Source: a virus (Duplodnaviria; Caudoviricetes). From it: a stretch of DNA of 64,000 nt. Positions 1,880 through 36,612 of this stretch are shown here, one piece after another. The first letter of the stretch is position 1. Every line of letters begins with the position of its first letter. The position numbers and the translations under genes are program-made. Under the pieces are notes generated by a model. It was not told the origin of the DNA, did not search any database, and saw only the letters and a program-made list of their open reading frames with translations. Where the stretch lies: positions 1-64,000 of the IMG/VR virus record IMGVR_UViG_2786546882_000003. One strand, written 5' to 3'.

Positions 1880-1928
1880 GGCAAATGCCGCAAGTAAAGT
1901 TTCCTTCCTTCAGCCAAAGGGCAAAGCC

Positions 1929-2543
1929 GTGCAGCTGAGACAGATCAAGTGTCTTCGTCGGCACAAGCCGCCAACACTCAATGCCATCAAGCATTACCTC
2001 TACTGCAATCCAGACGGCCGCGATGTCGTAAACGGTCGCCGCTGCGTCAAATACGTGAAGACGCGGTTGTTGTACGCGACGATCACGCAGGGGTGGCTGA
2101 CTGACGCACACTTCTTGATGCGGATCCCGGAGACCGGATCACTTCAGGCCAAACTCGACGCGATCGTCGCCGAGATCTGCAGCGGCAAGAACAAGCTGAA
2201 AGAGACTTTGCCGGATCCGGCTGAGTGCCCATCGGTTCCGCTGAATGGAATCATGCCAAAGTTTCGTCCAAACAGCGATTTCGAGCTTGTGCCGAGCGAA
2301 ACCGGTGTCACGGATCTACCCGAACCGGACGTGAGCACACGATACGGTCGGACTGGGCACTTGCGGACGATCCTTCCGCATTCGAGCGAACCGCACAAGC
2401 ACTACCGTTTCGACGCCAATCTCTGGCGGTTCATGCAGATGCACTGGCCACAGGCCGAGTTGTCGGTGTGGGATAACGGCGCGGGTCATTACCTCACCGC
2501 GTGGGTAAATGATGACCTAGTCGGTTTGACAATGGGTGTGTAG
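1929..2543 (+). CDS. hypothetical protein
   Basis: ORF 1878..2543; GTG start at 1929 chosen because it lies downstream of the promoter/leader. Confidence 0.7.
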   Translation: MQLRQIKCLRRHKPPTLNAIKHYLYCNPDGRDVVNGRRCVKYVKTRLLYATITQGWLTDAHFLMRIPETGSLQAKLDAIVAEICSGKNKLKETLPDPAECPSVPLNGIMPKFRPNSDFELVPSETGVTDLPEPDVSTRYGRTGHLRTILPHSSEPHKHYRFDANLWRFMQMHWPQAELSVWDNGAGHYLTAWVNDDLVGLTMGV

Positions 2544-2586
2544 CAGAGAGTTTAGTTTTTCACCACTTGCAATGGGTAACGGAGCA

Positions 2587-4626
2587 ATGCAAACAAAAGT
2601 CCGAGTCAGTACGTTTCAGCCGTTTGCGAAAGCAATCAACCGTCAATTTGAGTCGATGTCCGCGAATGGCGATCCGCTGTTTGTCGTTGACATCAGCCGA
2701 GACGATCTCTGGGCACACTACCTCAATTCATTTCCACCAGGATCGAATCCGATCTTCCGCACAAATACGGAGCATGACTGCAGTTGCTGCCGGCACTTCG
2801 TGAAGAATGTCGCCGGCGTCGTCCGCATAGTAGACGGAAAGCTTGTCTCAGTCTGGGATGTCGAAGGTTTGGCGTCGCCGTACAAAGAGGTGGCGGAAGC
2901 GATGTCGCAAGTCGTCAGACGGGCGCAGATTGCCGGCGTATTCCGCACAAGCTTCAGTCAATTCGGTGCCGAACGGACGACCGAATGCTCAGATGGTGCC
3001 GAGATCGACTGGCATCACTTCTACTGCTACGTTCCGAAAGCGTATCAGACGCTGAATGTCGACGCCGAAATCGGCAACGTCAATTCGATCGCTGGCGTGT
3101 TCCGTCGTGGTCTGGAAGAACTGACGTCTGAGTCTCTTGAAGACATCCTCTCACTAATCGAAGACAAGCAGCTGTACCGTGGCGAAGAGCACGAACGGAG
3201 CGTAAGGGGATTCCGAGACCTTCATCGGAAGTACCAGGAACTTGCCGGCTTGCCGTCACGGGCGTTATGCGAACGTTACCGACATCTTTTTGTCTGGGAT
3301 AACGTGTTCTCGCCGGCTGCTCGGTTCCGAAACAGTGTGATCGGTACGCTTGCCCAAGACCTGTCGGAAGGTGTTGAACTGGAAACAGCGGTCAAGTCGT
3401 TCGAGAGCAAGGTTGCACCGCAGAACTACAAGCGGCCGAAGTCGCTGATCACGCCGCGTATGATCGCGGCGGCTATGGAAACGATCGAAGGCCTTGGGTT
3501 GGAAGACGCGTTGCACCGTAGGCATGCGACATTCTCTGACGTCAGCGTGAACAACGTACTATTCGTTGATAACGAGATCCGTGGGCGAATGCGTGATGGA
3601 GGCGTGGCCGACTTGCTTATGCAAGAGGCCAGAGTGCCAACGCCGTCGTTCGATTCCGCGACGGAAATCAGTATCGACGAGTTTCTGAGCAATGTGGTCC
3701 CGACGGCCGATTCTATTGACATGCTGCTGGAAAACCGCATGACCGGAAACTTCGCCAGCATCACGGCACCAGCAATCCCAGAGGCAAAGCGGATCCTGAA
3801 ATGGAGTAACAACTTTGCTTGGACGTACGACGGCAACGTGGCCGACAGCATCAAGGAACGGGTCAAGCGGGCTGGCGGCAAGATTGACGCGTACTTCCGA
3901 GCCAGCCTCAGCTGGTACAACTACGATGACCTCGATATCCACATGCGTACTCCGCGTGGAGATCACATCTACTTTGGCCGAAAGGCCGGCATTCTCGACG
4001 TTGACATGAATGCCGGTAGCGGACGAAGCCGCGAGCCTGTTGAAAACATGGTTCTCGACAAGTTACACGACGGGGTGTACAGCATTTGGGTCAACCAATA
4101 CTTCCAGCGCGAGACCTCAAACGTCGGCTTTGAGGTAGAGCTTGAGTGCGACGGGATTCTGGAGCACTTCTCATACGACAGACCAATGCGATCTGACGAG
4201 AACGTAGACGTATTCAAGGTCCGCGTTGAGCGAGGCCAGATCAAAGAGGTAGTTCCCTCTAGCAAAGTGAAGTCGACCGCCAAGTCAATTGAGAAGTGGG
4301 GCCTGACGACGAACAACCTCGTCCGCGTGAACACGCTGCTGCTGAGCCCGAACCACTGGGATGACAACAGCGTCGGTAACCGGCACTGGTTCTTCATCCT
4401 CGATGGATGTCACAACCCTGATCCGATCCGAGGGTTGTACAACGAGTTCCTACAGCCGTCGCTGGAGCAGCACCGCAAAGTGTTCGAGGTGCTCGGTGAC
4501 AAGCTAAAGTGCCAGCCGTCTGACGACCAACTCAGCGGGGTTGGTTTCTCCTCAACTCGAAAAGACACGGCGGTGGTCGTCGTGCAATCGGGCACAAAGA
4601 AGCGCCCGTACAAGATCGTCTTCTAA
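2587..4626 (+). CDS. large conserved phage protein (HDCSCC N-terminus; DLDIH/LDVDMN YfaP-like region)
   Basis: ~680-aa ORF, GGAG RBS; motifs EHDCSCCRHF, LSWYNYDDLDIH, LDVDMNAG, QLSGVGFSST. Confidence 0.85.
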   Translation: MQTKVRVSTFQPFAKAINRQFESMSANGDPLFVVDISRDDLWAHYLNSFPPGSNPIFRTNTEHDCSCCRHFVKNVAGVVRIVDGKLVSVWDVEGLASPYKEVAEAMSQVVRRAQIAGVFRTSFSQFGAERTTECSDGAEIDWHHFYCYVPKAYQTLNVDAEIGNVNSIAGVFRRGLEELTSESLEDILSLIEDKQLYRGEEHERSVRGFRDLHRKYQELAGLPSRALCERYRHLFVWDNVFSPAARFRNSVIGTLAQDLSEGVELETAVKSFESKVAPQNYKRPKSLITPRMIAAAMETIEGLGLEDALHRRHATFSDVSVNNVLFVDNEIRGRMRDGGVADLLMQEARVPTPSFDSATEISIDEFLSNVVPTADSIDMLLENRMTGNFASITAPAIPEAKRILKWSNNFAWTYDGNVADSIKERVKRAGGKIDAYFRASLSWYNYDDLDIHMRTPRGDHIYFGRKAGILDVDMNAGSGRSREPVENMVLDKLHDGVYSIWVNQYFQRETSNVGFEVELECDGILEHFSYDRPMRSDENVDVFKVRVERGQIKEVVPSSKVKSTAKSIEKWGLTTNNLVRVNTLLLSPNHWDDNSVGNRHWFFILDGCHNPDPIRGLYNEFLQPSLEQHRKVFEVLGDKLKCQPSDDQLSGVGFSSTRKDTAVVVVQSGTKKRPYKIVF

Positions 4627-4668
4627 CTTTCGTTTCGGTTTTCTGACCACCAAGAAGGAAATAGTGCA

Positions 4669-5070
4669 GTGGATATTTTTGCCAAAGCTACCAAGATCAA
4701 GTTGCGTTTTGATTCCAGCGTTGGCGCGCTGGCCGTTGAACAGCTGTGGGATCTGCCCCTGACCAGCGAGCGGAAAGTCAACCTCGACGGCCTGGCCCGA
4801 GCGGTCAACCGTGAACTGAAAGAGACCGCTGAAGAAAGTTTCGTGCAGACCAAACCGGACCCACGCCGGGAGCAACTTTCGCTTCAACTGGAAATCCTCA
4901 AATTCATCATTAACTTCCGGCTCGATGAGAACCGGAAGAAGACGCAGGCCGCTCAACTCGAAACTGAACGCGAGCGGCTGAAGAGCATCCTCGAGACCAA
5001 GAAAGCACAGGCTCTCGAGAACCTCAGCGTCGAGGAAATTGAACAGCGACTCGCGTCGCTTGGCGCCTAG
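4669..5070 (+). CDS. conserved phage coiled-coil protein, probable partner of upstream gene
   Basis: KLRFDSSVG.L.VEQLWDLPL motif, C-terminal coiled coil. Confidence 0.85.
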   Translation: MDIFAKATKIKLRFDSSVGALAVEQLWDLPLTSERKVNLDGLARAVNRELKETAEESFVQTKPDPRREQLSLQLEILKFIINFRLDENRKKTQAAQLETERERLKSILETKKAQALENLSVEEIEQRLASLGA

Positions 5071-5417
5071 TCTCTTCCAGCAAGCGACCAAGGCATACGA
5101 TTGATCTGACACTTGGACCACCGGAGCGACGAGTAGATCGGCAGACGAGGGTGAGTCGACAGCGAACCCGCCGGTGAAGTTTGAGACGTGAGGCAGGCTA
5201 CCGATCGGCCAGAACCACAGGGGATGTCCAATGAAGCGCTAATTGATGCCGGAGGGCGAAACACTCCAACATGAAATAAGGGCACGCCACTGTTGCCGTG
5301 GTGGCCACCTGGGGCCAGGGAATCGACCAGGACTTGAAAGGCTACTGGCTTTAGCGAACAGCGAGCCGGCATTGATCCGACGCCAGCGGGGAGCCGATCG
5401 CTTTTTATTTTGGACCT

Positions 5418-5858
5418 GTGATGACGAAGCTCACGAGACAGCAGCTGCCGACACTTGTGGAAGTCTCCACTGTGATCCGAACCGTAAACGGCCGGACTGT
5501 TGAGCGACGCGCCCGTGAGCACCTCAACGTCAGAATTGTGCGAAGTGATCTATCACTCTACGAAGACGACCAAGTTGACATTGAGGAAATGTCCATCGAG
5601 GTCGGAAACGGGGTGGATCACGCGGGGAAGAAGCGATGGTTCATAAACGCTATTCGGCTCCGCGTTTGGGATAAGCATATTGGCTATCGGGCCAGTCGCG
5701 ACAACTCGGCACAGGGCATTCGAATCGATTTGAGCATTCAGCTGTCTGGCCGCGATCAAGAGGTCTTCGGCCAGCGGTTCAAACTGCACGACTCATTCGA
5801 AGAGGGCCATCGTGACGGCAAGCAGAAGTCAACGACGCTTTTCTTTGTGGGCATCTAA
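5418..5858 (+). CDS. hypothetical protein
   Basis: 146-aa ORF in gene run. Confidence 0.6.
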   Translation: MMTKLTRQQLPTLVEVSTVIRTVNGRTVERRAREHLNVRIVRSDLSLYEDDQVDIEEMSIEVGNGVDHAGKKRWFINAIRLRVWDKHIGYRASRDNSAQGIRIDLSIQLSGRDQEVFGQRFKLHDSFEEGHRDGKQKSTTLFFVGI

Positions 5859-5878
5859 CAATACAAACGGAGCGAGAA

Positions 5879-6439: not shown

Positions 6440-6684
6440 TGCCGCAAAAAATTAAGAGCGCCGTGCGATTCGCGTTCAAGTGCCTGCGCGGCATGACAAC
6501 GGCTGCGATATTCTGCATAGCAGCACCCATGTATGTAATGTGCAGTCCGATCTGGATTGTCGGAGCTGCGTACAACTGGGCCAATGACCAGCACGACCGA
6601 CCCTTCAAATCACACTTCTACTGGCTTGCGTTCAAATCTGAGCACGAGCGGGAACGTTGGTTAGAGTCTGGCAAAGAGTGGTAA
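6436..6684 (+). CDS. hypothetical membrane protein
   Basis: ATGA overlap, hydrophobic stretch. Confidence 0.6.
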   Translation: MMPQKIKSAVRFAFKCLRGMTTAAIFCIAAPMYVMCSPIWIVGAAYNWANDQHDRPFKSHFYWLAFKSEHERERWLESGKEW

Positions 6685-7497: not shown

Positions 7498-7545
7498 TTG
7501 ACCGCCATTTGCCGATCAGTATAATACTTGACGTCGCAAGCAAGT
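7498..7545 (+). promoter_or_regulatory. sigma70-like promoter plus GTCGCAAG hairpin
   Basis: TTGACC-16nt-TATAAT (7498-7525), then ACTTG-acgtcgcaag-CAAGT. Confidence 0.8.
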
Positions 7546-8117: not shown

Positions 8118-8169
8118 AGCCGTTGTCGCAAGCGGCTGTTTCCTTTCACGATCACGAGGGGGTTTTTTT
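8118..8169 (+). promoter_or_regulatory. GTCGCAAG hairpin leader followed by weak terminator-like hairpin and U tract
   Basis: AGCCG-ttgtcgcaag-CGGCT-GTTTCCTTTCAC...GAGGGGG-TTTTTTT. Confidence 0.7.
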
Positions 8170-8201: not shown

Positions 8202-8801
8202 ATGAATAATGCGAAAACGCATACGCTTCTAACCGCAGATACGTGTAATTGCGGAGGTAAGTCAGGCCGTTGTCCGGTATGCGACTACGGTCTAGGTGTT
8301 TGTTCTGTTTGCGGTGGTGCTGAATGCCAACTTGACGACTACTCATGCGCTGATCTACTCGCTGATAGGCGAATTAAGAAATGCCCTCATTGTAACTTTC
8401 CTAGGCCAGCGGACGTTGAGCCGTGGCAAAGATGCTCAAAATGTGGACGTGATACTTCAGCTAAACACTCGGTACATGAAGTTTCTGATCCTGTACGAGA
8501 CGAGGCGGTATCACTACGGGCTAACATCCTCGACGAGATCACCGAAGAACGAGAGCGACAAATTGCCTTAGCCCATGGTGGTGACACCCAGTCGTTCGAC
8601 AAAGCAAACGGAATGAATGACTGGGTGGCGTACATCACTGCATATGCTGGCCGCGCGGCCGAAAAAGTGTACCGCAACCAGCGTGAGTCTGAACTCAACG
8701 GGAAAGATTCATGCGACAAGAAACGGTTTCGGGAAAACATGGTAAAAGTCGCCGCTTTGGCATTGGCTGCGATTGAAGCTCATGAGAACGGTTATTGTTA
8801 A
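8202..8801 (+). CDS. Cys-rich Zn-finger protein with C-terminal helical (MazG-like) domain
   Basis: Multiple CxxC; EERERQ...NDWVAYI...VKVAALALAAIE. Confidence 0.65.
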   Translation: MNNAKTHTLLTADTCNCGGKSGRCPVCDYGLGVCSVCGGAECQLDDYSCADLLADRRIKKCPHCNFPRPADVEPWQRCSKCGRDTSAKHSVHEVSDPVRDEAVSLRANILDEITEERERQIALAHGGDTQSFDKANGMNDWVAYITAYAGRAAEKVYRNQRESELNGKDSCDKKRFRENMVKVAALALAAIEAHENGYC

Positions 8802-17780: not shown

Positions 17781-17814
17781 GAACGGGCGTAGGGGGCCTC
17801 AACGGTCCGCTCTC

Positions 17815-18482
17815 GAACTGGACCAGCCTGTTTCAGCTTCGGGGCCTGGAATTGGCGACATGCCGCTGAAGGCCACTGAGAGGCTGGACAACGCGTTTTG
17901 GGCGTACGGGGTATGGAGCGTCGCCTAAGTGGCTTTGCGGCCGTCTCCGGGCCGCACAGGAGCTCTCAGCGGCATTCTGCCATAGCGGCCATCGCGTCAT
18001 GGTGGCTGGCTTAGCTCGGAGGCCTGTGCGATTTTGCACGCGCGGCTGCAGGAAACCCGGCTGTCCTGGTCGACATGGGTAGGGGCCTAGGAGGCTCACA
18101 GACGCATCGTGGCTCTTGGCGGTGTGGTTACTCGGTGGTTGGGCTTTGAGGCCGGGAGACGAAGCCTCTGGAACTGGACCAGCCTGTTTCGGCTTGGAGG
18201 CCTTGCGTCGGCGAGCACTGGGTTTTGTCGCTGAGCGGCCGGGACTCTCTGGATTCGCCCCTCGTGACGCCTGGAGGCCAGGCCGCCGAACTGGACCAGC
18301 CTGTTTCGCTGTCGGGTGGTCTCACTGGCGAGCGTCTGAGCGACTGAAAGCGAAGCGTCCTGCTCGGCTACTGGCCGGGACAGTCGCGATTGGCTGCGGC
18401 TGATTCTAAGCCGCCGGGACGATGGTGTTTCCCGCCGCACGGAGGTCAGGTCGCACTGCGTCGAACTGGACCAGCCTTTTTC
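17815..18482 (+). repeat. four dispersed 20-bp direct repeats GAACTGGACCAGCCT(G/T)TTTC
   Basis: Copies at 17815, 18171, 18288, 18463 in a region without a credible ORF. Confidence 0.85.
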
Positions 18483-18742
18483 GTCGCCAGATGGGGGATT
18501 TGGCGAGCGCAGGACCGCCGCGAATCCGCCGTGTCCCGGCCAAAACCGAGCGTCCGGCACAGCGATCCTGAGCCGTCTCAAAACGAGACGTCCCGCTTGG
18601 GCTGAGACGCCGGGACATCTCACTTTGAGACGAGCTGAAACGTTGCCGTCGCGCATAGTTGACGGCGGGCAAGAGCGAAACGGGCCGGTCCGTACACGTA
18701 CGCGGGCGAGCGGTCAATCGCCACCGTCCGTGTCAGCGCACG

Positions 18743-19095: not shown

Positions 19096-19137
19096 CTCCA
19101 GTGGAAGGAATCTTAGCGGGCCTTGCGACAGCCCCGC
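19096..19137 (-). promoter_or_regulatory. GTCGCAAG hairpin / TTCCTTCCACTGGAG leader (minus strand)
   Basis: Reverse complement GCGGGGCTGTCGCAAGGCCCGCTAAGATTCCTTCCACTGGAG. Confidence 0.85.
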
Positions 19138-19200
19138 GTGAACACTTAGCAGAATCGACCAGATTGACAAAGAGCAGCGACGCGTTTTGCGTCCCAATGC

Positions 19201-19228
19201 ATTATGCATATCGGCAACGACCAGTCAA
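19201..19228 (-). promoter_or_regulatory. sigma70-like promoter
   Basis: Reverse complement TTGACT-ggtcgTTGCCGATatg-CATAAT (16-nt spacer). Confidence 0.75.
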
Positions 19229-19285
19229 CCGCTATAGTCACAATTAGAGCAAAAAACTTTTTCCTTCTTGCCTATTGAATTATAC

Positions 19286-19314
19286 TTGACGGCAACCTAT
19301 GCCGATGCAATAAT
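19286..19314 (+). promoter_or_regulatory. sigma70-like promoter, divergent from 19201-19228
   Basis: TTGACG-17nt (with ATGCCGAT)-AATAAT. Confidence 0.65.
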
Positions 19315-19441
19315 CGCGGGTGTCGTGAGGCAATCGCGACGCCAACCGCTCTTTCTCAATTCGGCTTTCGCTCCTCGGCAGTGACCTGAGACGTCCGAGG
19401 GTTATGTCGCAAGTTTTTCCTTCCACTGGAGTATTGAGACA

Positions 19442-20208
19442 ATGGGTTTTCACCTTCTTGGCGATGACACGTCCAACGTTAAGCTTTCCTTGCGCCCAGA
19501 GATGGCCGACCGGCTAGCCGATAACTTCCAAGTGTTCGGCTTGACGTTATAGCCGCTTCTGACACGAGCGGCTATAACGTCTGCGCACAATCGACGCCGG
19601 CATGCCGGCGTGATTGCGTGCTCCTCACACGCGGCAAGGCTAAGTTACCTAGCGTCCAGCAAGCGCGGCAGCGGAAAACACGGCTTCTATTTGAAAATCC
19701 GACCGAATTCCACAGGCTGCTACGCTTAGACTTTGAACGCGTCGCGCATATAGCCGATCGCTACGGCTTCACGCCGCTAATGCGGATGGACGTCGGCAGC
19801 GACCTAGGCTGGTTTCGATACGCTCGAGACTTTCCAGAATTCCGGTTTTACGGTTACACGAAAGTCTACAGCCGCTTCTCTAAGCCGATCCCGTCAAATA
19901 TGCATTTGACGTACAGCTGGAACGAGCTAAGCGTAGCGCGGGGCGTCGATCCCGGCCGCGTGTTCGATGCCGGCCAGAATATCGCCGTAGTCGTGTCGAC
20001 GTTGAACAAACACGGCACGCGGCTCGCCGGCCAGCTCCCCGCGATTGTCGACCTATGCGGCTATCGCAAGCGCCCGGTCGATGGCGACGCGCACGACTGG
20101 AGAATTCCAGAGCTCGACGGGCGCGGCCGCCTAGTCGCACTACGCTTTAAGGGTGGCGCGGCCGCCAGACAGAAGGCTATTCGCGATGGTTTCGTGCTAT
20201 CGGTTTAG
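19442..20208 (+). pseudogene. GP88-like phage protein, frameshifted at ~19550
   Basis: ATG 19442 after leader reads to TAG 19550-52; the -1 frame continues AASDTSGYNVCAQSTPACRRDC...FYGYTK...LTYS...DGDAHDWR...LRFKG. Confidence 0.7.
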
Positions 20209-20216: not shown

Positions 20217-20245
20217 CCTCCCCGATATCGGGGAGGTTTTTTTTT
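20217..20245 (+). terminator. intrinsic terminator
   Basis: CCTCCCCGATATCGGGGAGG plus T9. Confidence 0.9.
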
Positions 20246-20591: not shown

Positions 20592-20672
20592 TTGACGACA
20601 CGTTGCCGATACGTATAATACAGAAGTCACGCGGGCACGTCGCAAGGCCCGCCAAGATTCCTTCCACTGGAG
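20592..20672 (+). promoter_or_regulatory. promoter plus GTCGCAAG hairpin / TTCCTTCCACTGGAG leader
   Basis: TTGACG-16-TATAAT; GCGGGC-acgtcgcaag-GCCCGC; GATTCCTTCCACTGGAG. Confidence 0.9.
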
Positions 20673-20680
20673 ATGATGAG

Positions 20681-21058
20681 ATGCAAGCCGTCGATATCGA
20701 CGTTGACGACGTTCTGGATGCCTACATTACTGCCGCGTTGTGGTCCACGACTGACGACAATGACGAGCCGTTGGATGAGAATTACGCGGCAAGTGACCTT
20801 GCCCCCGAAACGCTCGAGCGGATGCGCGCCGACGTCGTTTCCTTTGTCGAGAAGCACGCCAGCGAGATTGCCGCATGGGAAGGTGACGACGCGGCCAAGC
20901 AAGCCGGCCACGACTTGTGGTTTACGCGTTGCGGCCACGGTGTCGGCTTCTGGGAGTCCGAGTGGGGCCGGCCGGGCGAGATTCTCGACAGCTACGCAAA
21001 ATCGATCGGCGAAGTCTGGCTGTACGTCGGCAATGATGAAAAAATCTACATTGCCTAG
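20681..21058 (+). CDS. acidic phage protein (GHD.W.TR.GHG.GFW family)
   Basis: YITAALWS...AGHDLWFTRCGHGVGFWE. Confidence 0.85.
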   Translation: MQAVDIDVDDVLDAYITAALWSTTDDNDEPLDENYAASDLAPETLERMRADVVSFVEKHASEIAAWEGDDAAKQAGHDLWFTRCGHGVGFWESEWGRPGEILDSYAKSIGEVWLYVGNDEKIYIA

Positions 21059-21070
21059 GGGCCACAAACG

Positions 21071-21256
21071 ATGATAGACGCCGCAAACATGACGCTAAAC
21101 GAAGTGCTCGCCAAGCTAGGCTACCGAACCGAACCCGCCGGGCACTACAACAAAGACATCGTGACAAAATCGGGTTGGGTTGCCTTTCGCGGTGACGCCA
21201 ATTCAGTCTGGCAATGGCTCCAAGAAACCGAACAAATTCTACCGACAATACCTTGA
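21071..21256 (+). CDS. hypothetical protein
   Basis: 61-aa ORF. Confidence 0.6.
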   Translation: MIDAANMTLNEVLAKLGYRTEPAGHYNKDIVTKSGWVAFRGDANSVWQWLQETEQILPTIP

Positions 21257-21335
21257 CTCAAGATTGCCGTTGCGTATAATCGATAAGACACGGCGGGCAC
21301 GTCGCAAGGCCCGCCAAAACTTCCTTCCACTGGAG
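21253..21335 (+). promoter_or_regulatory. promoter plus GTCGCAAG hairpin leader
   Basis: TTGACT-16-TATAAT; GGCGGGC-acgtcgcaag-GCCCGCC; CTTCCTTCCACTGGAG. Confidence 0.9.
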
Positions 21336-21344
21336 ACCAAGACT

Positions 21345-21914
21345 ATGTCCACACGTGCAACCTATCAATTCGTCTCGGACCATGACCGCCCCCGCGCTCG
21401 CTACACGTTCTACGGTCACTATGACGGTTACGAGGCTGGAGCCGCTTTCCGGCTGTGGCGGATGCATCACAGCAACCGTAAAGGTGGGTTTGCCGATCGT
21501 TTCCACGGCGGAAACGATGACGTCGAATTGACGCCCGGCCACGACGCCCACGGAGACACGGAATATCAATACACGTTGACTTCTGACGGCCAGTTGACTG
21601 TCAAGGCCCGCGTGTGGGGAGATAACGTCAACAGGTGGCGTACCAAGTACGTCGGCCACTATGCCGAATTTGTCAATCAACACTTGCCGGCCGACTGGTG
21701 CGGCGACGGCTCGCCAGCTGCAGAGCGATTACAAGAAGTTTCGCTGGGGTACGGCCGTCGCGGCTGGCGGACTCGCAGCCAGCTGGAGGCGGAAGCGGCA
21801 GAACTGAAAGAGAAAATCGACGTCAAGGGCTGGAAACAATACACCGGCCAACTGTTGACGATTAAAGCCGCCATCCGCGAATACGACGCGTCAAAAAGTT
21901 TTGAGCTCGCCTAG
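21345..21914 (+). CDS. phage early protein (M.TRA...Y.H.DGY family)
   Basis: MSTRATY...FYGHYDGY...HGDTEYQY. Confidence 0.8.
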   Translation: MSTRATYQFVSDHDRPRARYTFYGHYDGYEAGAAFRLWRMHHSNRKGGFADRFHGGNDDVELTPGHDAHGDTEYQYTLTSDGQLTVKARVWGDNVNRWRTKYVGHYAEFVNQHLPADWCGDGSPAAERLQEVSLGYGRRGWRTRSQLEAEAAELKEKIDVKGWKQYTGQLLTIKAAIREYDASKSFELA

Positions 21915-21931
21915 TCACCAACCACCACACG

Positions 21932-21960
21932 CCGCCGGCTGAACTCCAGCCGGCGGTTTT
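21932..21960 (+). terminator. intrinsic terminator-like hairpin
   Basis: CCGCCGGCTG-aactc-CAGCCGGCGG-TTTT. Confidence 0.7.
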
Positions 21961-21962
21961 CC

Positions 21963-22003
21963 CGGGCACGTCGCAAGGCCCGCCAAGATTCCTTCCACTG
22001 GAG
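21963..22003 (+). promoter_or_regulatory. GTCGCAAG hairpin leader without its own promoter
   Basis: CGGGC-acgtcgcaag-GCCCG; GATTCCTTCCACTGGAG directly after terminator. Confidence 0.85.
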
Positions 22004-22012
22004 CAAACGAAC

Positions 22013-22576
22013 ATGGGAACCACCTACCAAAACGTCGACAAGTCAACCAACCTTCGTGATTACGTCCAAGCCGAATACGGCGGCCAGCCGGGCGTCTACG
22101 ACTACAGCGTCGTCGGCGGCAATGCCTACCTGCTATGCGGCCACCCCGGCCGCTTGGGAATTGTCGTCGTGAAGCTGTCCAAGCATACCGACGAATATGG
22201 TTTGCACATCGGCACCAAGCCGATCGACGAATCGAGTCACCCGTATTACTACGACTGCCCGCTACGGCTTCTTGATAAAGCCGATCCCCCCGTGAACGAT
22301 GACGCCGCACGATGGCGCGAAGAGGTCCGCCGCCGGGCCAGCGCCCGCAACCGGGTACGGCGGATTAAGGACGGCGAGCGGATTAAGCTTGCCGCGCCGC
22401 TCAATTATGGTTTCGGTAGCTTCGACACTTTCGAAGCCGCCACCATGTTCTACCGTGGCCATAGCACCCGGGTCTATCGAATCGTCGCCCCCGGGAAAAT
22501 TGGCGACCGTCGCCTAGTCCGAATCTCCCGGCTTCATACGCGTGAGTTCGAAGTGCTCGAGCCCCCCAAGTCATAA
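22013..22576 (+). CDS. DUF6927-like protein
   Basis: K.IDESSHPYYYDCP..LL...AARWR motif. Confidence 0.75.
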   Translation: MGTTYQNVDKSTNLRDYVQAEYGGQPGVYDYSVVGGNAYLLCGHPGRLGIVVVKLSKHTDEYGLHIGTKPIDESSHPYYYDCPLRLLDKADPPVNDDAARWREEVRRRASARNRVRRIKDGERIKLAAPLNYGFGSFDTFEAATMFYRGHSTRVYRIVAPGKIGDRRLVRISRLHTREFEVLEPPKS

Positions 22577-22596
22577 CCTGTGGAAGGGTTGCGACG

Positions 22597-22638
22597 GCGG
22601 CCGACTGGGAATAATCCCGGCCGGCCGCTTTTTTTTTT
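22597..22638 (+). terminator. intrinsic terminator
   Basis: GCGGCCGACTGGGA...TCCCGGCCGGCCGC plus T10. Confidence 0.85.
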
Positions 22639-22649
22639 GCGCTAATGAC

Positions 22650-22728
22650 TTGACGCTAGATTGCCGATACGTATAATATGGCATAACGGGCACGTCGCAA
22701 GGCCCGCAAAAACTTCCTTCCACTGGAG
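22650..22728 (+). promoter_or_regulatory. promoter plus GTCGCAAG hairpin leader
   Basis: TTGACG-16-TATAAT; CGGGC-acgtcgcaag-GCCCG; CTTCCTTCCACTGGAG. Confidence 0.9.
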
Positions 22729-22737
22729 ACCGAAACT

Positions 22738-23342: not shown

Positions 23343-23570
23343 CGTGCGCGGATCCCGCCGCAAATGACGGAGCTACTGCCACACCCCCTGCCAGAAGATG
23401 CAAAAAAGTTCATGCGGAAAACCGCAGAATTCTCCTCTCTCCAGTGCGAAAAATATCGAGCGAGGATTTCAGAAATGGCAAATTTGGCAAAACACAACCG
23501 CCGCCATTGATCGTCATTTGCCTTTTCCGTAAGATAGCGGAAGTTTCCTTCTACAAATAGCGAGTCCGTA

Positions 23571-24777: not shown

Positions 24778-24840
24778 TTGACAACCTATTGCCGATGCGT
24801 ATAATGGCTGATGTCGCAAGCAGCCGTTTCCTTTTACCAC
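24778..24840 (+). promoter_or_regulatory. promoter plus GTCGCAAG hairpin leader
   Basis: TTGACA-16-TATAAT; GGCTG-atgtcgcaag-CAGCC; GTTTCCTTTTACCAC. Confidence 0.88.
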
Positions 24841-24856
24841 TAGTCGGAGCCTTTCT

Positions 24857-26848: not shown

Positions 26849-26943
26849 ACGCACCGAGGCGAGGCTGACCGCGCGGTAACCCCGCGTGGTTGGCCGCCGT
26901 CTCGACACCAAGTTCCTTCCGCTACCTTCCACTGGAGAGCCGC

Positions 26944-28949: not shown

Positions 28950-29006
28950 GCCCCACGGGTGTTTTTATGTCGCAAGCACCCGTGGGGCAGTTTCCTTCCA
29001 CTAGAG
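28950..29006 (+). promoter_or_regulatory. GTCGCAAG hairpin leader (12-bp stem) with no substantial downstream gene
   Basis: GCCCCACGGGTG-tttttatgtcgcaag-CACCCGTGGGGC-AGTTTCCTTCCACTAGAG. Confidence 0.85.
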
Positions 29007-31757: not shown

Positions 31758-32020
31758 TGCTTTTCGTTGACGTCCGTAGGAGGCGGCAACTCCCCTAGTT
31801 CTTCCAGCACGGAGGTAATACTGAAGGCCGCATCTTGCAGACGGCGGATCCGATTGACAAATCGGTCGATTTCGGCCTGCCTTTTCATGTTTTTCGGCGG
31901 CATTTTGCGGGCTTCCCGCTCTGCCAGCACAACTTCGGCCAGAGCCACTTTCAAACGTGCCGAAATGGCATTGCGAGTACCACCAACGACCAAATTTGTG
32001 CCAGAATTCATGATAAACAC
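31754..32020 (-). CDS. hypothetical protein
   Basis: 88-aa helical ORF. Confidence 0.5.
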   Translation of the reverse strand: MFIMNSGTNLVVGGTRNAISARLKVALAEVVLAEREARKMPPKNMKRQAEIDRFVNRIRRLQDAAFSITSVLEELGELPPPTDVNEKH

Positions 32021-32127
32021 CTAGTAGAAGGAAACCGTTTGCGACAAAATGCGTTTATACGTATCGGTTAGTTCACAGGCAAGACCAAAAACAAACGGTG
32101 AGGATGTCGAAAAATCGATTGAAGCAG

Positions 32128-32189
32128 TTGACCGGCAAGTTTCCGTTGCGTATACTGACAGCGTCACAAGCATCAGTTTCCTTCCCCAC
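32128..32189 (+). promoter_or_regulatory. promoter plus variant leader (GTCACAAG)
   Basis: TTGACC-17-TATACT; ACTGA..gcgtcacaag..TCAGT-TTCCTTCCCCAC. Confidence 0.75.
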
Positions 32190-32203
32190 GTGAGGTTTCT
32201 CCA

Positions 32204-32791
32204 ATGAAAGTCACGCGTCGTGATTTGGCGCAAAATCGCGCTAAATTCAGCGTCATTAATCCGTCTGGCCAGCGGTTTACGTATCAGATTGACGTAAAAC
32301 GCGATGATCTCGGCGGCGAGATGCGATTTGTCAATTACTTCAACGGACCCAAGAGCATCTACTTGGGCATCTTTGACCTGCATCACAACAGCCCTGATCG
32401 CGAAGGCCTGCTGCAGTTGACCAAAGCGTCGCCGCGAGACCCAATTTCACGGAAGGCCGCTGCTGTGTTCTCGTGGGTCGTCCACAGAATCTTGTGGACT
32501 GGCGACGCTGATCTCCCCAGTGGCTATGAGGTGCGTAACCATCGGCAGAGTCTTCCGGATCTGATCCATAAACCCGCTGCGGTTGTCGTCTGGGAGCATG
32601 TCCTTGGTCGTCAAGTTGCGGATTTCGGAGAGGGCATTTCGCTTGAGCCAACCGGCGTGCAAATGCTGGCGCAGGCCCAATCATCCAACGATGAGATTCT
32701 GCAAAAGGCTTTGCCAACTGTGGATGGCGGACTGCTGATCACGACGCCGGAGCCAATCGACGGCCTCAGTTTTGTAATTGAGGTGCGGTAA
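32204..32791 (+). CDS. phage protein resembling the N-terminal part of DUF6011-associated proteins
   Basis: GQRFTYQI...RFV...GP...YLG...LTKAS...F.W...LP.GYEV. Confidence 0.65.
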   Translation: MKVTRRDLAQNRAKFSVINPSGQRFTYQIDVKRDDLGGEMRFVNYFNGPKSIYLGIFDLHHNSPDREGLLQLTKASPRDPISRKAAAVFSWVVHRILWTGDADLPSGYEVRNHRQSLPDLIHKPAAVVVWEHVLGRQVADFGEGISLEPTGVQMLAQAQSSNDEILQKALPTVDGGLLITTPEPIDGLSFVIEVR

Positions 32792-33426
32792 TGCAGATTG
32801 AGACGAGTGTTAGCGTGCGGGAACCGTACGCGCACCTTTTGGTGTCAGGGCTCAAGAAGGTTGAAAACCGATCGATCCCGTTTCCATCCAGGTATAAGCT
32901 TCCGACTTGGGTCGCCGTTCATGCTTCGCAGTCGCTGGAGGAATTCAGCGACGTGGAGCACCTGGCGATGATCGCCGGTGATAATCCTCCTATCGCGGAT
33001 GCGTGGGGGTTCGATAAACCGTTTCCTTGGGAGGAGTATGAAGGCGTTCCAGACCATCTTCTTCCTCGTATCTTCGGTCGTTCCGAAATCATCGGAGCGA
33101 TTGAAGTGGTGGCGACGGTCCCGTTTCGGATGGATAGTACGGTTTCCGAGACGTTTGCAGGCTTTCCCGACATGGAGAACTACGAGAAGTTCGCCGTCGG
33201 CGAGCACTGTTGGATTATCGGCGGCTCGATCCGGTTTAAGCACCCCATCGTGACCCTCGGTCACCTCGGCGTCCGCAACATGAAATCGGATGTGGCGGCA
33301 TTTGTTCGAGAGACGGCCAAGACGCTTCTGACGAGCCCGGCTGAGCCTTATGGCCGGCCAGTGGTTCACAGGCTGCCGTCGCTGCCGAAGCGAGAACTAC
33401 TGATGTACCAGGCGGATGTCGAGTGA
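32791..33426 (+). CDS. ASCH domain protein
   Basis: SVREPYA.LLVSG.KKVENRS...VAVHAS. Confidence 0.85.
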   Translation: MQIETSVSVREPYAHLLVSGLKKVENRSIPFPSRYKLPTWVAVHASQSLEEFSDVEHLAMIAGDNPPIADAWGFDKPFPWEEYEGVPDHLLPRIFGRSEIIGAIEVVATVPFRMDSTVSETFAGFPDMENYEKFAVGEHCWIIGGSIRFKHPIVTLGHLGVRNMKSDVAAFVRETAKTLLTSPAEPYGRPVVHRLPSLPKRELLMYQADVE

Positions 33427-33742
33427 AAAGCCGGGGGAACGGAGAGCAGCGCGTCGACTCAGACGAAAGGAGGCTGAGTCATATCAGGGGGTGATCAGCG
33501 CTGTTCCGTACCCCGTGATTTGGAGCGAACACGCGAAGGAACGCCTGTTCGAGCGGTTTGGGTTGTTCCCAAGCGATGCGAAAATGCCAGAGAAGACGAT
33601 ACAACGGGTTGGACTCTCGAAAGGACTTTTTCAGGAGTACTATGTCCGCCGTAAACAAATCGTCTACGTCTGCAAGCAAGTTGACAACGCTGTAGTAATC
33701 AAAACTGTGTTGTTTGCGGACTCGCGTCGTTTCGGGGTTTGA
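33416..33742 (+). CDS. hypothetical protein
   Basis: SEHAKERLFERF...VIKTV. Confidence 0.65.
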   Translation: MSSEKPGERRAARRLRRKEAESYQGVISAVPYPVIWSEHAKERLFERFGLFPSDAKMPEKTIQRVGLSKGLFQEYYVRRKQIVYVCKQVDNAVVIKTVLFADSRRFGV

Positions 33743-34404
33743 CTTTGAACCGAAAAAAGAGCAAACCGCAGTCGGACAATCGGCCGGCTGTGGTTAAGAC
33801 CCGCGTGGAATTGCGGACGGACGCACAGCGGCACGTATATTCAATGTTCCCGCACGTTGACGTGCTTTTCTTACTTGGCCCCGCCGGCGTCGGGAAGTCG
33901 TTCTTAGCGACAGCCCTAGCGATTCGGCAAATCGAGCGTGAGCAGGCCGAGCGGATCATCATTACTCGGCCGATTGTCGAATCGGAAGAGTCGCTTGGGT
34001 ATCTACCAGGCGATCTGCGGGAAAAGACGGATCCGTATATGGCTCCGTTGTACGACCAGATCGAGCGGCTCAAGCACGACGAGGCCAGGGAGTTCACGCG
34101 TAAATACGTCACGGTCTCTCCGCTGGCATACATGCGCGGCCGCACGTTTAACGACGCCGTGTGCATCTTTGACGAAGCCCAGAACGCGAATATCAAACAG
34201 CTCAAGCTGCATCTGACGCGTCTTGGTGAGGGCGGCAAGATTATCATCACTGGGGACACGACGCAGTCCGACATACGTGACTCCGGTTTGGCGGAAGTTG
34301 TCGATAGGCTCAACAACGTTCCGGGTGTCGGCATCGTGAGGTTCGAAGGAGCCGACATCGTACGGCATCCGGTGGTTGAACGAATTCTTGAGCGATTGCC
34401 GTAG
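33739..34404 (+). CDS. phoH: PhoH-family ATPase
   Basis: GPAGVGKS, LGYLPG, YMRGRTF, DEAQN, TRLGE, GD..QSD, DIVRHP. Confidence 0.96.
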   Translation: MTLNRKKSKPQSDNRPAVVKTRVELRTDAQRHVYSMFPHVDVLFLLGPAGVGKSFLATALAIRQIEREQAERIIITRPIVESEESLGYLPGDLREKTDPYMAPLYDQIERLKHDEAREFTRKYVTVSPLAYMRGRTFNDAVCIFDEAQNANIKQLKLHLTRLGEGGKIIITGDTTQSDIRDSGLAEVVDRLNNVPGVGIVRFEGADIVRHPVVERILERLP

Positions 34405-34412
34405 GGGCTACG

Positions 34413-35216
34413 ATGTTTTCTGCAAAGGTTCTGGCCGATAGTTTTTACGAGGATAGCCGACTTACAACACTTGAGTTGACTTATCCAAGGTTCGTGCATT
34501 CAGAGGTGCTCACGCACCGAATGCTCTCCAGAAACGCGGCCAGTTCCAGGGCCATTCCTGTGAGCCGGATGCTGCAGGATGTGCGTGACAACCCTGTCAT
34601 CCCGATTCACTGGGGGAAGAACCAGAAAGGCATGCAGGCTTGGCAGGAGGTCGACCCTGATGGGGCCGCGATGTCCGAGGCCCTTTGGCTTGCAGCCCGT
34701 GACGAAGCGGTCAGCGTCGTAGAGCAGATGCAGAAGATCGGCGTTCACAAACAGATCGCGAATCGATTGCTTGAGCCCTGGATGTGGATTACGGTCATCG
34801 CCTCGGCGACGAATTGGTCCAACTTCTTCGCGCTTCGGTGTCACCCGGATGCTGAACCGCACATCAGAAAAATCGCGAATCTAGCCAAAGTCGCAATCAT
34901 CAAGAGTAGCCCGCAGATATTGGAGGCCGGCCAATGGCACTTGCCGCTGATCGGCTTCGACGGGGACGAGAAACTCACGACAATTGAGCGGGTGCCAGTT
35001 TCGACTGGGCGATGTGCCCGCGTGAGCTATTTGACACATGACGGCAAGCGAGATGTGCGTGCCGACATAGACCTCCACGATCGACTGGTGCAGGCCGGGC
35101 ACTGGAGCCCGTTCGAACACCAAGCGATGGCGGCGCCGACACGGAGCTCCGCCGGAGGAAATTTCGGGAGCCGGTGGATCCAGTACCGAAAGACATTTGA
35201 GGGCGAATGTCGGTAA
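34413..35216 (+). CDS. thyX: FAD-dependent thymidylate synthase-like protein
   Basis: HSEVLTHRMLSRNAASSRAIP, ANRLLEP, NFFALR, CARVSY, HWSPFEH. Confidence 0.9.
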   Translation: MFSAKVLADSFYEDSRLTTLELTYPRFVHSEVLTHRMLSRNAASSRAIPVSRMLQDVRDNPVIPIHWGKNQKGMQAWQEVDPDGAAMSEALWLAARDEAVSVVEQMQKIGVHKQIANRLLEPWMWITVIASATNWSNFFALRCHPDAEPHIRKIANLAKVAIIKSSPQILEAGQWHLPLIGFDGDEKLTTIERVPVSTGRCARVSYLTHDGKRDVRADIDLHDRLVQAGHWSPFEHQAMAAPTRSSAGGNFGSRWIQYRKTFEGECR

Positions 35217-35234
35217 CCCTTACGAGAGAGTGTT

Positions 35235-36242
35235 ATGGTCAATGTTGATCGTCGGGATATCGTTATTGATACCCTGAAGGCGTACCCGAAAACCGATAAC
35301 CGAACTCTCGCGCGACTGCTGCACGATCAGTATCCGCACGAGTTTGGAACGGTCGAAAGTGCGAGAAGTTCGGTCAGGTACTATCGAGGGGTCCAGGGAA
35401 GCAAGAAGTCAGTCAAGGCTTCGCTTCGGCACAAAACGGCTCAGCCAAAACGAACCCCTCGAACGATTACGATCCCAAAGGGAATTCGGCACGCGCCGCC
35501 AGCCCGTCGCTTCCGTGATCGCGGAAAATGGCTGCTGATCGGCGACTTACACTGCCCATTTCATGACGAGTCGGCGATCGAGGCGGCCATCCGGCACAGC
35601 GTTGATAACGGAGTCGAGCACCTCTGCCTGAACGGAGATGTCTACGACTTCTACAAACTGTCCAGATGGACGAAGAACCCAAAGGAACGCGATCCAGAAC
35701 ACGAGCTGGATGTCGGCGGCCAGGTTCTCGACGAGTTTGCGTCTCACTTCGGCGGCCGAAAAGTCTTCAAGGCCGGCAACCATGAGGAACGGTACGAAAC
35801 GTACCTCTACGCGCAAGCCCCAGCCCTCGTGGGGATCGCCGACTTCGAATTGCACAAGGTTTTGAAGCTCCGCGATCGCGGATACGACTTCGTCAAGAGT
35901 CGGCAGTTCTATTCCCTTGGTAGACTCTCCGTGTTCCATGGGCATGAACTACCGCGCGGACTGACGGACCCCGTAAACGTCGCCCGGGGTGTCTGGAATC
36001 GGGTGCGCGAATCGGCGATTGTCAACCACTGGCACCGAACATCGACTCACGTCGATACCAGCGGTTTGAAAACGCGCACCGATGCCTGCTATAGCATAGG
36101 CTGCATGTGCGATATGCAGCCGAACTATGCCCCCGTGAACGCTTGGAACCTCGGCTACGCGGAAGTTGAGATCGGCGAGAAGGGCACTTGGAACGTACAG
36201 CTGAAGATTGTCGACCGTGGGCAAGTCTATTCGGTGTGTTGA
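35235..36242 (+). CDS. calcineurin-like metallophosphoesterase with N-terminal HTH-like region
   Basis: GDLH, NGD..D, GNHE, HGHE, HWH. Confidence 0.9.
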   Translation: MVNVDRRDIVIDTLKAYPKTDNRTLARLLHDQYPHEFGTVESARSSVRYYRGVQGSKKSVKASLRHKTAQPKRTPRTITIPKGIRHAPPARRFRDRGKWLLIGDLHCPFHDESAIEAAIRHSVDNGVEHLCLNGDVYDFYKLSRWTKNPKERDPEHELDVGGQVLDEFASHFGGRKVFKAGNHEERYETYLYAQAPALVGIADFELHKVLKLRDRGYDFVKSRQFYSLGRLSVFHGHELPRGLTDPVNVARGVWNRVRESAIVNHWHRTSTHVDTSGLKTRTDACYSIGCMCDMQPNYAPVNAWNLGYAEVEIGEKGTWNVQLKIVDRGQVYSVC

Positions 36243-36544
36243 TGTTCCTGCTAATCAACGGAAAGCGGTATCAACTCAAGTTAGTACGACGCATTGTCAA
36301 CAATGACAACGAGGCGGACGGAGAGTGTGACGCCCCACACGTCAAAGGTAAACAGATTCGAATTCGGTCGGATCTAACCGGTCGGCGTCTTCTTGATGTG
36401 CTGATTCACGAGTTCTTGCACGGCGCGTTTTGGCACCTCAGCGAAGAGTCTGTCGAGCAAACTGCTTCAGAAATGGCGGCCTTTCTGTGGCGGCTTGGGT
36501 ATCGCCTTCCACCGGACTGGAAGCAACGCAACAAGCTAGGTTAG
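36242..36544 (+). CDS. small HExxH metallopeptidase-like protein
   Basis: GEC...IRI...LIHEFLHG...EE.V. Confidence 0.75.
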   Translation: MFLLINGKRYQLKLVRRIVNNDNEADGECDAPHVKGKQIRIRSDLTGRRLLDVLIHEFLHGAFWHLSEESVEQTASEMAAFLWRLGYRLPPDWKQRNKLG

Positions 36545-36558
36545 CTTGCCTTTGCGTA

Positions 36559-36612
36559 TTGACCGCTGCTTGTCGTCCGGTATACTGAGATAGTCGCAAG
36601 TAAGTTTTCTTT
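36559..36612 (+). promoter_or_regulatory. promoter plus degenerate GTCGCAAG leader
   Basis: TTGACC-16-TATACT; tagtcgcaag..GTTTTCTTTC. Confidence 0.7.

Follow-up and report, generated by a model that had tools for sequence, protein, structure and literature searches.

Introduction

A phage protein can shut off or tune a group of early messages through RNA elements placed at their ribosome sites, such as the RegA sites of T4, the GGAG sequences cleaved by T4 RegB, and the gene 43 and gene 32 operators of T4/RB69. The gene 43 and gene 32 operators are single-copy and autoregulatory, and RegA and RegB act at short sites that have no covarying, fixed-loop hairpin. Repeated motifs in early leaders are also already known from other phages. 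Cluster K mycobacteriophages carry 11-19 copies per genome of SAS, a 13-bp sequence (GGGATAGGAGCCC) located 3-7 bp before start codons, which is asymmetric, points one way, occurs only in the non-structural half of the genome, contains the Shine-Dalgarno (SD) core and is absent from the host (PMC3203893). About half of the SAS are accompanied by upstream 17-bp imperfect inverted repeats (ESAS), for which RNA pairing had no support and DNA binding was favoured by the authors; for SAS, a role in translation initiation was proposed, with an unknown partner (PMC3203893). T4-type phages carry PeSLs, dozens of conserved cassettes of an early sigma-70-type promoter and a stem-loop, which flank small genes of unknown function in plastic regions, vary in their stem-loop by lineage and have been implicated in modular shuffling (PMC2839356, PMC4122927). 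The PeSL stem-loop is a terminator upstream of the promoter (PMC4122927). A partner or mechanism has been established for neither the SAS nor the PeSL repeats. Here we describe a new and lineage-specific family of repeated leaders in contig C155 (100,062 bp), an uncultured marine tailed phage, of which the first 64 kb are hereafter called the window. The typical unit combines a short hairpin displaying the motif GTCGCAAG in its loop, a pyrimidine-rich box, TTCCTTCCAC, and the GGAG ribosome-binding site of the first gene of an operon.

Results

A repeated motif at the heads of early operons

The window contains 16 occurrences of the motif GTCGCAAG, compared with 3.8 ± 2.1 in shuffled sequences, none of which reached 16 (0/100). 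Twelve exact copies are intergenic units, and three copies deviate at one position (GCCGCAAG at 1887, GTCACAAG at 32163 and GTCGCAAA at 32045 on the minus strand); a further copy lies at C135:2659-2681 (-), on a second phage-like contig of the same metagenome bin. The matches at 211, 2904 and 59686 and on the minus strand at 38285 and 41504 are coding or chance occurrences and were not counted as units. A preceding sequence-only reading of this DNA had recognised about 12 copies as a family. The family is confirmed, and two members that had been missed, the copies at 32045 (-) and on C135, join it.

All 15 copies face in the same direction as the next gene, so that the orientation with transcription noted in the earlier reading extends to every unit. 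The first 40 kb of C155 hold small genes and genes of DNA metabolism, encoding a RadC-like JAB protein, a DUF6927 protein, a GP88-family protein, an SF1 helicase, a Dam-type methylase, PhoH, ThyX, a dNMP kinase and exonucleases, and the terminase, capsid and tail genes follow from ~40 kb. The units, ~16 copies in all, are confined to the early region (1.9-36.6 kb) and to operon heads, the module being present only at the first gene of each operon, and zero units were found in the structural/late part or in the 64-100 kb portion of C155. Thirteen of the 15 units lie 29-44 nt ahead of a start codon.

Replaced stems that still pair around an invariant loop

Covariation was counted on all 15 copies in a single fixed register. 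Stem cells paired in 73.3% of cases compared with 46.9 ± 5.3% in shuffles (0/500), and only 31-47% of cells paired when the register was slid. All five stem pairs vary on both sides, and the covariation score was 0.651, against 0.243 ± 0.068 in shuffles. The co-varying stems of the earlier reading are thus borne out, here among paralogues in one genome. RNAalifold recovered the same helix unaided from the nine in-register copies; given all 15 copies in one register, it predicted no structure, because six of them are stemless or shifted. A covariance model, R1, was built from nine copies and searched across the bin of 3.56 Mb, from which it set the family cleanly apart. Members scored 29-32.5 bits and the best other match in the bin 22.5 bits, in a coding region, and the model recovered the held-out copy with a 12-bp stem (unit 28969) at 16.1 bits.

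The stems are 5-7 bp long (12 bp in one copy), and the loops measure 10-15 nt, or 7 nt if a pyrimidine-G (Y-G) pair closes. About six stems are independent, namely ACTTG, AGCCG, GGCTG, the (G)GCGGGC group, the 12-bp stem and ACTGA. Every stem that the earlier reading had listed was found in its place (7526, 8118, 19137 on the minus strand, 20631, 21292, 21963, 22687, 24806, 28950 and 32154), and its weak-stem copies near 1885, 19404 and 36591 correspond to motifs at 1887, 19406 and 36593 with weak or no stems. The base preceding the motif is a pyrimidine in 14 of the 15 copies and can pair with the last G of the motif. The effective loop is therefore GUCGCAA with a Y-G closing pair, and it includes a C-GCAA-G core. 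The closing pair is U-G in seven copies, C-G in six and U-A in one, the latter being the copy whose last base became A. Hairpin energies range from -3 to -30 kcal/mol, and the motif is displayed in the loop in 11 of 15 copies. The near-identical units at 19-23 kb (19129 on the minus strand, 20639, 21301, 21970 and 22694) continue with an A-rich spacer such as CAAGA. As judged by a GC-rich hairpin followed by a U tract, the family does not consist of intrinsic terminators, only 8118-8137 being weakly flagged; terminator-like hairpins are the box-based one at 8141-8162 and the 12-bp one at 28950-28988. A loop-box pseudoknot was dropped as a candidate, since it comprised only 3 bp and did not covary in the variant copies. 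Mimics of CRISPR repeats were dropped because the stems vary, and pairing of the loop with an antisense RNA was dropped because the complement of the motif, CTTGCGAC, matches the plus strand only inside two coding genes.

The many U-G closing pairs favour a sense-strand RNA over DNA or the opposite strand. This bears on a suggestion of the earlier reading that copies whose 5' arm abuts or overlaps a -10 box may act either in read-through RNA or as single-stranded DNA (ssDNA) or a cruciform. A DNA signal of this sort could be, for example, an N4-like hairpin promoter for a virion RNA polymerase or a priming or recombination site. The 5' arm does adjoin or overlap the -10 at 7526, 24806 and 32154, and because it lies there between the -10 and the transcript start, it would be absent from the RNA of that promoter, as a DNA signal would allow. 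However, the seven U-G pairs would be T-G or A-C mismatches in DNA, and stems of 5 bp with 10-nt loops would not extrude from duplex DNA. An N4-type hairpin promoter needs a 5-7 bp stem with a 3-nt loop, whereas the loops here have 10 nt. Neither Pfam nor PHROGs detected a phage RNA polymerase among the large proteins scanned, which included a 1932-aa protein that lacks the DxDxD motif, and nine units are already served by strong consensus sigma-70 promoters. We give the ssDNA or cruciform signal scarcely any credence, while read-through RNA is plausible for the copies that abut a -10.

A box fused to the ribosome-binding site

Exact copies of the box TTCCTTCCAC number 8, with 0.10 expected, although the box is not enriched when up to two mismatches are allowed (60 vs 57.6 expected). 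Together with its C/T variant, it is found in 12 copies in the 116 kb of phage contigs vs 2 in the other 3.45 Mb of the bin. The box lies downstream of the hairpin, contiguous with the GGAG ribosome site, and is CU-rich and complementary to the SD sequence. As the earlier reading had stated, it follows nearly all copies of the motif and often runs into GGAG, unit 7533 being boxless. In five of six near-identical units, the native box lowers the predicted accessibility of the SD sequence (unpaired probability 0.04-0.24 vs 0.38-0.65) relative to controls in which the box was swapped for random 10-mers, and ranks in the lowest 2-7% of these controls. Extended pairing of the box with the 16S 3' tail was rejected as a misfit to the usual tail; no 16S gene is present in the bin.

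Three ribosome sites carry the box but no GTCGCAAG hairpin, and the box can therefore occur alone. The leader of the helicase gene (23524-23554, plus strand; ATG 23571) has TTTCCTTCTAC at 23544-23554 after a -10-like TAAGAT, the leader of the Dam-type methyltransferase gene (26913-26940, plus strand) has TTCCTTCCGC followed by TACCTTCCACTGGAG, and the third box lies at about 2106 on the minus strand of C135 (L294). All three of these leaders carry a CCACTGGAG-type ribosome site.

A purely cis-acting leader, with the box as an S1-type landing pad or translational enhancer and the hairpin as a shield from 5'-end-dependent decay, would be served by a pyrimidine-rich box that stands directly 5' of the SD sequence and is also found without the hairpin. 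In three units, moreover, the hairpin starts 3-6 nt past the predicted transcript start, like known 5' stabilisers such as the hairpins of the ompA and ermC leaders. However, a stabiliser needs no letter-perfect 8-nt loop across fully replaced stems, the transcripts of the six units with the motif at the transcript start would begin unstructured, and the internal copies at 8125, 21970 and on C135 keep the hairpin far from any 5' end. We regard a leader acting in cis alone as distinctly unlikely.

A shared operator as the favoured model

Judged from its sequence, the family is a real, uncatalogued and lineage-specific control element with a selected single-strand structure. A role in translation or mRNA fate appears more likely for it than lambda-style antitermination. 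The model that we tentatively favour, although we are slightly more doubtful than convinced, is that of a post-transcriptional operator common to the early operons and placed at the first ribosome site of each. The module would have three parts: a short hairpin of any stem sequence showing the fixed, Y-G-closed loop GUCGCAA, a CU-rich, anti-Shine-Dalgarno-like box (UUCCUUCCAC), and the GGAG site of the first gene. Recognition of the loop and of the neighbouring single-stranded box by a sequence-specific factor of phage or host origin would control how readily ribosomes reach the first cistron, and perhaps how long the mRNA survives, jointly in all early operons. The letter-perfect loop argues for such a sequence-specific reader, and the spacing of 29-44 nt in 13 of 15 units together with the fusion of the box to GGAG points to the ribosome-binding site rather than to a modification of RNA polymerase. 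Where the transcript starts at the motif, the motif would be single-stranded at the 5' end and a hairpin unnecessary; a motif lying farther inside the RNA would be kept exposed by the hairpin. Action as RNA, a trans-acting factor and the level of control are here read from the anatomy of the units, and the direction, activation or shut-off, cannot be given by sequence.

Several observations weigh against the operator model. The evidence consists of paralogues in one clonal phage population, and because five of them are near-identical, only about six stems are independent. In four diverged units, the native box does not lower SD accessibility and the box:SD pairing is absent, and even where it is predicted this pairing is weak (4 bp). 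Unit 28969 has a hairpin and a box with no gene, and unit 7533 lacks the box. Units 8125 and 21970 adjoin terminators, which would equally fit a role at the level of transcription.

Placement of the units relative to promoters and terminators

Nine units are preceded by strong sigma-70-like promoters, and the motif stands at one of two distances from the -10. In six units (1887, 7533, 24813, 32045 on the minus strand, 32163 and 36593), it begins 6-8 nt past the -10, at the expected transcript start. Unit 1887 (1852-1910; plus strand here and below unless stated) has the promoter TTGACT-16-AATAAT with the -10 at 1874-1879, GCCGCAAG at 1887-1894, 7 nt past it, and the box TTCCTTCCTT at 1901-1910; it is stemless and heads an operon from GTG 1929. 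Unit 7533 (7498-7545) combines the promoter TTGACC-16-TATAAT (7498-7525) with the hairpin ACTTG/CAAGT (7526-7545) and has the motif at 7533-7540, 7 nt past the -10, ahead of ATG 7567. In unit 24813 (24778-24850), the hairpin GGCTG/CAGCC (24806-24825) adjoins the -10 of a perfect consensus promoter (24778-24805), the motif again lying 7 nt past the -10, and the box TTCCTTTTAC (24828-24837) and GGAG precede ATG 24857. Unit 32045 (32019-32059, minus strand) has the -10 TATAAA at 32059-32054, GTCGCAAA at 32045-32038, 8 nt past it, no clear stem, and the box TTCCTTCTAC at 32033-32024 followed by AGGTG and ATG. Unit 32163 (32128-32195) has a promoter at 32128-32156 (TATACT), overlapped at its -10 by the hairpin ACTGA/TCAGT (32154-32177, 14-nt loop); GTCACAAG begins 6 nt past the -10, and the box TTCCTTCCCC (32178-32187) and GAGG lead to ATG 32204, the head of an operon that includes PhoH, ThyX and a small protein, P0022. 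Unit 36593 (36559-36615) is stemless, with a promoter at 36559-36586 (TATACT), the motif at 36593-36600, 6 nt past the -10, and a degenerate box, TTTCTTTCGC, at 36606-36615 before ATG 36630.

In three units, 20639, 21301 and 22694, the motif lies 16-20 nt past the -10 and the hairpin starts 3-6 nt into the predicted RNA. Unit 20639 (20592-20672) has a promoter at 20592-20619, the hairpin GCGGGC/GCCCGC at 20631-20652, the motif 19 nt past the -10, and the box at 20658-20667 followed by GGAG. Two overlapping frames follow it (20673-21074), both open for ~125-133 codons, one from ATG 20673/20676 and the other from ATG 20681; the GGAG spacing favours ATG 20681. Unit 21301 (21253-21336) has a promoter at 21253-21280, the hairpin GGCGGGC/GCCCGCC at 21292-21315, and the box at 21321-21330 with GGAG before ATG 21345. 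In unit 22694 (22650-22729), the promoter lies at 22650-22677, the hairpin CGGGC/GCCCG at 22687-22706 and the box at 22714-22723 with GGAG, ahead of ATG 22738 of the RadC-like JAB protein.

The remaining six copies (21970, 8125, 19129 on the minus strand, 19406, 28969 and C135) have no adjoining promoter. Unit 21970 (21963-22004) is promoterless, its hairpin CGGGC/GCCCG (21963-21982) lying directly 3' of an intrinsic terminator, and its box (21989-21998) and GGAG precede ATG 22013 of the DUF6927 protein. Terminators lie at 20217-20236 and 21925-21956. Unit 8125 (8118-8162) follows a short gene; its hairpin AGCCG/CGGCT (8118-8137) is succeeded by the box TTCCTTTCAC (8140-8149), which is the 5' arm of the terminator-like hairpin 8141-8162, then T7, and the next ATG is at 8202. 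Unit 19129 (19099-19137, minus strand) stands in a long leader, 72 nt downstream of a promoter -10 ending at 19201, with the hairpin GCGGG/CCCGC at 19137-19116, the motif at 19129-19122, the box at 19110-19101, GGAG and GTG 19087. Unit 19406 (19406-19431) is 92 nt into a long leader; its motif (19406-19413) has no stem of its own and lies directly 3' of a hairpin CCTCGG..CCGAGG, and the box (19417-19426) and GGAG lead to ATG 19442 of a 36-aa open reading frame (ORF), followed by the GP88-family gene at 19618. Unit 28969 (28950-29001) has the 12-bp hairpin at 28950-28988, whose 15-nt loop ends in GTCGCAAG, and a box at 28992-29001; it lies between convergent genes with no gene downstream and resembles a two-way terminator. 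The C135 copy comes after a terminator-like hairpin.

The stem is missing in three of the six transcript-start units vs one of the nine others, a trend only, which fits a hairpin serving to keep internally placed motifs exposed. The same placement could be read as that of an RNA processing site, where cleavage in or at the loop by an endoribonuclease would give read-through and polycistronic RNAs the 5' end GUCGCAAG... that six promoters make directly. The motif at the expected +1 in six units, the internal copies that come after upstream genes or terminators, and a RelE/BECR-like small protein with an arginine-rich helix (P0022) encoded by the phage would all suit such cutting. However, the proposal is entirely inferential, nothing links P0022 to the hairpin, and RelE-type enzymes usually act on the ribosome (PMC11980606), not on hairpin loops. 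We therefore consider processing quite improbable.

The early promoters themselves form a family with a conserved spacer, TTGAC-N5-TTGCCGNTNCGTATAAT, the spacer TTGCCGNTNCGTATAAT occurring in 9 copies vs 0.2 expected (1863-1879, 7509-7525, 20603-20619, 21264-21280, 22661-22677, 24789-24805 and 32140-32156, and on the minus strand 19201-19217 and 19279-19295). Its conservation suggests that the spacer may be the operator of a DNA-binding regulator overlapping the promoters.

boxA-like sequences and the question of antitermination

The sequence-only reading had proposed a binding site for a factor controlling antitermination or translation, organised like a nut site. In a nut-like system, the hairpin would be the boxB equivalent that loads a phage N-like protein and host Nus factors onto the polymerase, so that early terminators are read through. 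Units are promoter-proximal at operon heads, as expected of such sites; a terminator stands right after unit 8125, before a 10-gene block without its own promoter, and unit 21970 follows a strong terminator. The window also contains two boxA-like sequences that the earlier reading had not reported. GCTCTTTGTCAAT (19163-19175, minus strand) lies in the leftward long leader after a small hairpin (19193-19179), ~24 nt before the hairpin of unit 19129, and GCTCTTTCTCAAT (19348-19360, plus strand) lies in the rightward long leader after a hairpin at 19320-19342, 45 nt before the motif of unit 19406. They are the sole matches to the pattern GCTCTTT(G/C)TCAAT in the window, and each is on the sense strand of one of the two divergent long leaders, whose promoters stand back to back at 19.2-19.3 kb. 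With the published boxA consensus GYTCTTTAANA (bioRxiv 10.1101/091223), they agree at positions 1-7 and 11, the critical C4 included. Their position upstream of the motif reproduces the lambda order of boxA followed by the hairpin, the layout recalls lambda nutL/nutR or rrn leaders, and the pair favours some Nus-type antitermination at this locus. Nus-dependent read-through may thus operate in the divergent control region at 19.2-19.4 kb, and read-through of this kind may account for the whole transcription of copies whose 5' arm abuts a -10.

However, the family as a whole fits this scheme poorly. Neither the loop nor the box matches the boxB or boxA consensus, as the earlier reading had seen: the loop has 7-10 nt, unlike a GNRA-like pentaloop, TTCCTTCCAC bears no relation to boxA (CGCUCUUA / GYUCUUUAANA), 13 of 15 units have no GCTCTT core in or beside them, and 12 of the 14 window units have no GCTCTTTA-like sequence (at most one mismatch) within -100 to +60. 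Polymerase loading does not need ~16 copies at a fixed distance from ribosome sites, and most cassettes have their own promoter and terminator. Unit 21970 comes after its terminator, and unit 28969 is itself terminator-like. A binding site for a factor acting in antitermination or translation remains plausible in general, whereas its specific nut-like form is disfavoured by the box, the loop and the coupling to ribosome sites, and we consider it unlikely for the family, though it is the strongest competitor of the operator model.

The small basic protein encoded nearby, P0022 (33416-33742, plus strand; 108 aa, pI 10.1), belongs to the operon headed by unit 32163 and is a candidate partner only. 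It has an N-terminal arginine-rich helix (ERRAARRLRRKEAE), which would suit an N-like protein. The rest of the protein, however, is modelled as a folded domain of RelE/BECR type instead of an N-like disordered chain, and an arginine-rich motif is absent from the product of the leftward operon's first gene. The AlphaFold model (pLDDT 87.8) was matched by Foldseek to the toxins RelE2, ParE, YoeB, YafQ and BrnT with E values of about 0.01-0.1. The match to DUF4258 was sub-threshold, and 8 of 23 homologues match likewise, with a best E of 9e-4; DUF4258 is listed among the BECR-fold toxin families of unknown target (PMC11980606). H39, R43, R47 and T97 are invariant in the P0022 family. No obvious antitoxin partner accompanies the protein, and its closest homologues share the arginine-rich extension. 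On these predictions, P0022 is plausibly an RNA-binding or RNA-cutting protein. A bolder and improbable version of the operator model has the loop and box recognised by a dedicated RNA-binding regulator or nuclease of the phage, with P0022 as the sole concrete candidate, which would switch ~16 early operons together, perhaps cutting at the loop to give all early messages the 5' end made by six promoters. If true, such a circuit would be early-gene control of a kind not described for any phage.

Restriction to one phage lineage

C155 belongs to a marine metagenome bin of 165 contigs. Its closest terminase matches reach only ~27% identity, which indicates a phage without cultured relatives. The second contig, C135 (15.7 kb, GC 55%), was found together with C155 in at least two other runs, and what the two share is limited to a single leader and a gene family that C155 carries at 88.7-89.1 kb. 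C135 may be another piece of the C155 genome or a related phage.

Copies of the module were sought in phage and other genomes, as the earlier reading had proposed, and none was found outside C155 and C135. In a viral contig collection, GTCGCAAG-N5-25-TTCCTTCC gave at least 118 single chance or coding matches, none with an in-register stem. A longer box gave 0 matches in each of the viral and metagenome contig collections. A degenerate box gave 32 single matches among the 185,579 species of a genome collection, about the chance number, none with a hairpin. The motif family was not found in 100 relatives of the host bin, and blastn against GenBank phages returned nothing. The motif was absent from 160 loci with homologues of the gene at 21345-21914 and from 15 loci with homologues of a 696-aa PHROG 1735 protein; the latter had no analogous hairpin leader family, their only repeats being tandem coding repeats, tRNA T-arms and a plain string associated with ribosome-binding sites. 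A helicase query retrieved no viral relative. With no copy in any collection, the evidence rests on paralogues within one clonal phage. In four DNA runs over 18.5-37 kb, the phage was clonal, with zero variants in any leader, and thus offers no population-level covariation. A metatranscriptome of the source sample contained next to none of the phage sequence words.

The family also appears undescribed in Rfam 15. No family reached its gathering score over the whole window, and no unit was matched at E up to 5 in 18.5-37 kb. A sub-threshold match to ctRNA_pGA1 at 22570-22642 (plus strand; 29.5 bits against a gathering score of 45, E 0.022) covers the terminator region that separates the RadC promoter from the DUF6927 gene and is probably a chance match to a hairpin.

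Repeats of this kind could alternatively be mobile promoter-leader cassettes kept by recombination, PeSL-like substrates of shuffling without an RNA function of their own. The array at 19-23 kb consists of promoter-leader-small gene-terminator units with near-identical leaders of ~40 bp, unit 24813 and C135 share nothing but a 37-bp leader segment at 94.6% identity, their flanking genes being different, and assemblies from other samples break at leaders. However, neutral repeats would keep neither pairing through stem replacement nor an invariant loop, and shuffling is possibly a consequence of the repeats rather than their function. We judge this explanation very improbable; the stretch common to unit 24813 and C135 between unrelated flanks fits cassette exchange as a side effect.

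Other non-coding features of the window

Two late leaders (44367-44487 and 57393-57510) have a common upstream TAGCGCTTTTTGAC and a hairpin GGTT-AGCACAAGC-AACC, whose 3' arm also contributes to the 5' arm of a strong terminator and thus sets the two folds in competition. A link between these leaders (44.4 and 57.4 kb) and the family was rejected, as they have only CACAAG in common with the loop of unit 32163 and are missed by model R1. Downstream of the leftward early operon, 17810-18506 is a non-coding repeat field with four units of ~49 nt (core GAACTGGACCAGCCTGTTTC) and several inverted repeats; its long ORFs, low-complexity strings of Arg, Ser and Pro, are probably not genes.

Discussion

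The stems that are replaced yet still pair, the invariant loop and the U-G closure provide unusually clean sequence-level evidence for a repeat that acts as a folded RNA. If a factor reads the module, ~16 operons would be coordinated post-transcriptionally through one small RNA sign of about 45 nt, and these operons include likely anti-defence or host-takeover genes encoding the RadC-like, DUF6927 and GP88-family proteins.

Among known systems, the RegA and RegB sites of T4 and the gene 43 and gene 32 operators differ from this module in both sequence and structure. Lambda nut sites and rrn leaders resemble it in having a small hairpin beside a single-stranded pyrimidine-rich segment, promoter-proximal and co-oriented, with a free stem and a fixed loop, and two units even have a boxA-like GCTCTTT upstream. 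However, the loop here is a GUCGCAA of 7-10 nt, there are ~16 copies instead of two, the adjacent box differs from boxA and runs into the ribosome site, and no N-like protein was recognised. The PeSLs are close in that they are repeated regulatory cassettes around small genes, and since separate terminators precede several of the promoters, the array as a whole resembles a PeSL region. Unlike in PeSLs, the order here is promoter, hairpin and ribosome site, the hairpin is mostly not a terminator, and it is accompanied by an invariant loop and a box at the ribosome site. The nearest analogue in behaviour is SAS, which are likewise repeated, asymmetric and located at the start sites of non-structural genes. 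The two families have no sequence similarity, and unlike SAS, the units described here stand only at operon heads, have promoters attached, and possess covarying stems that support action as RNA.

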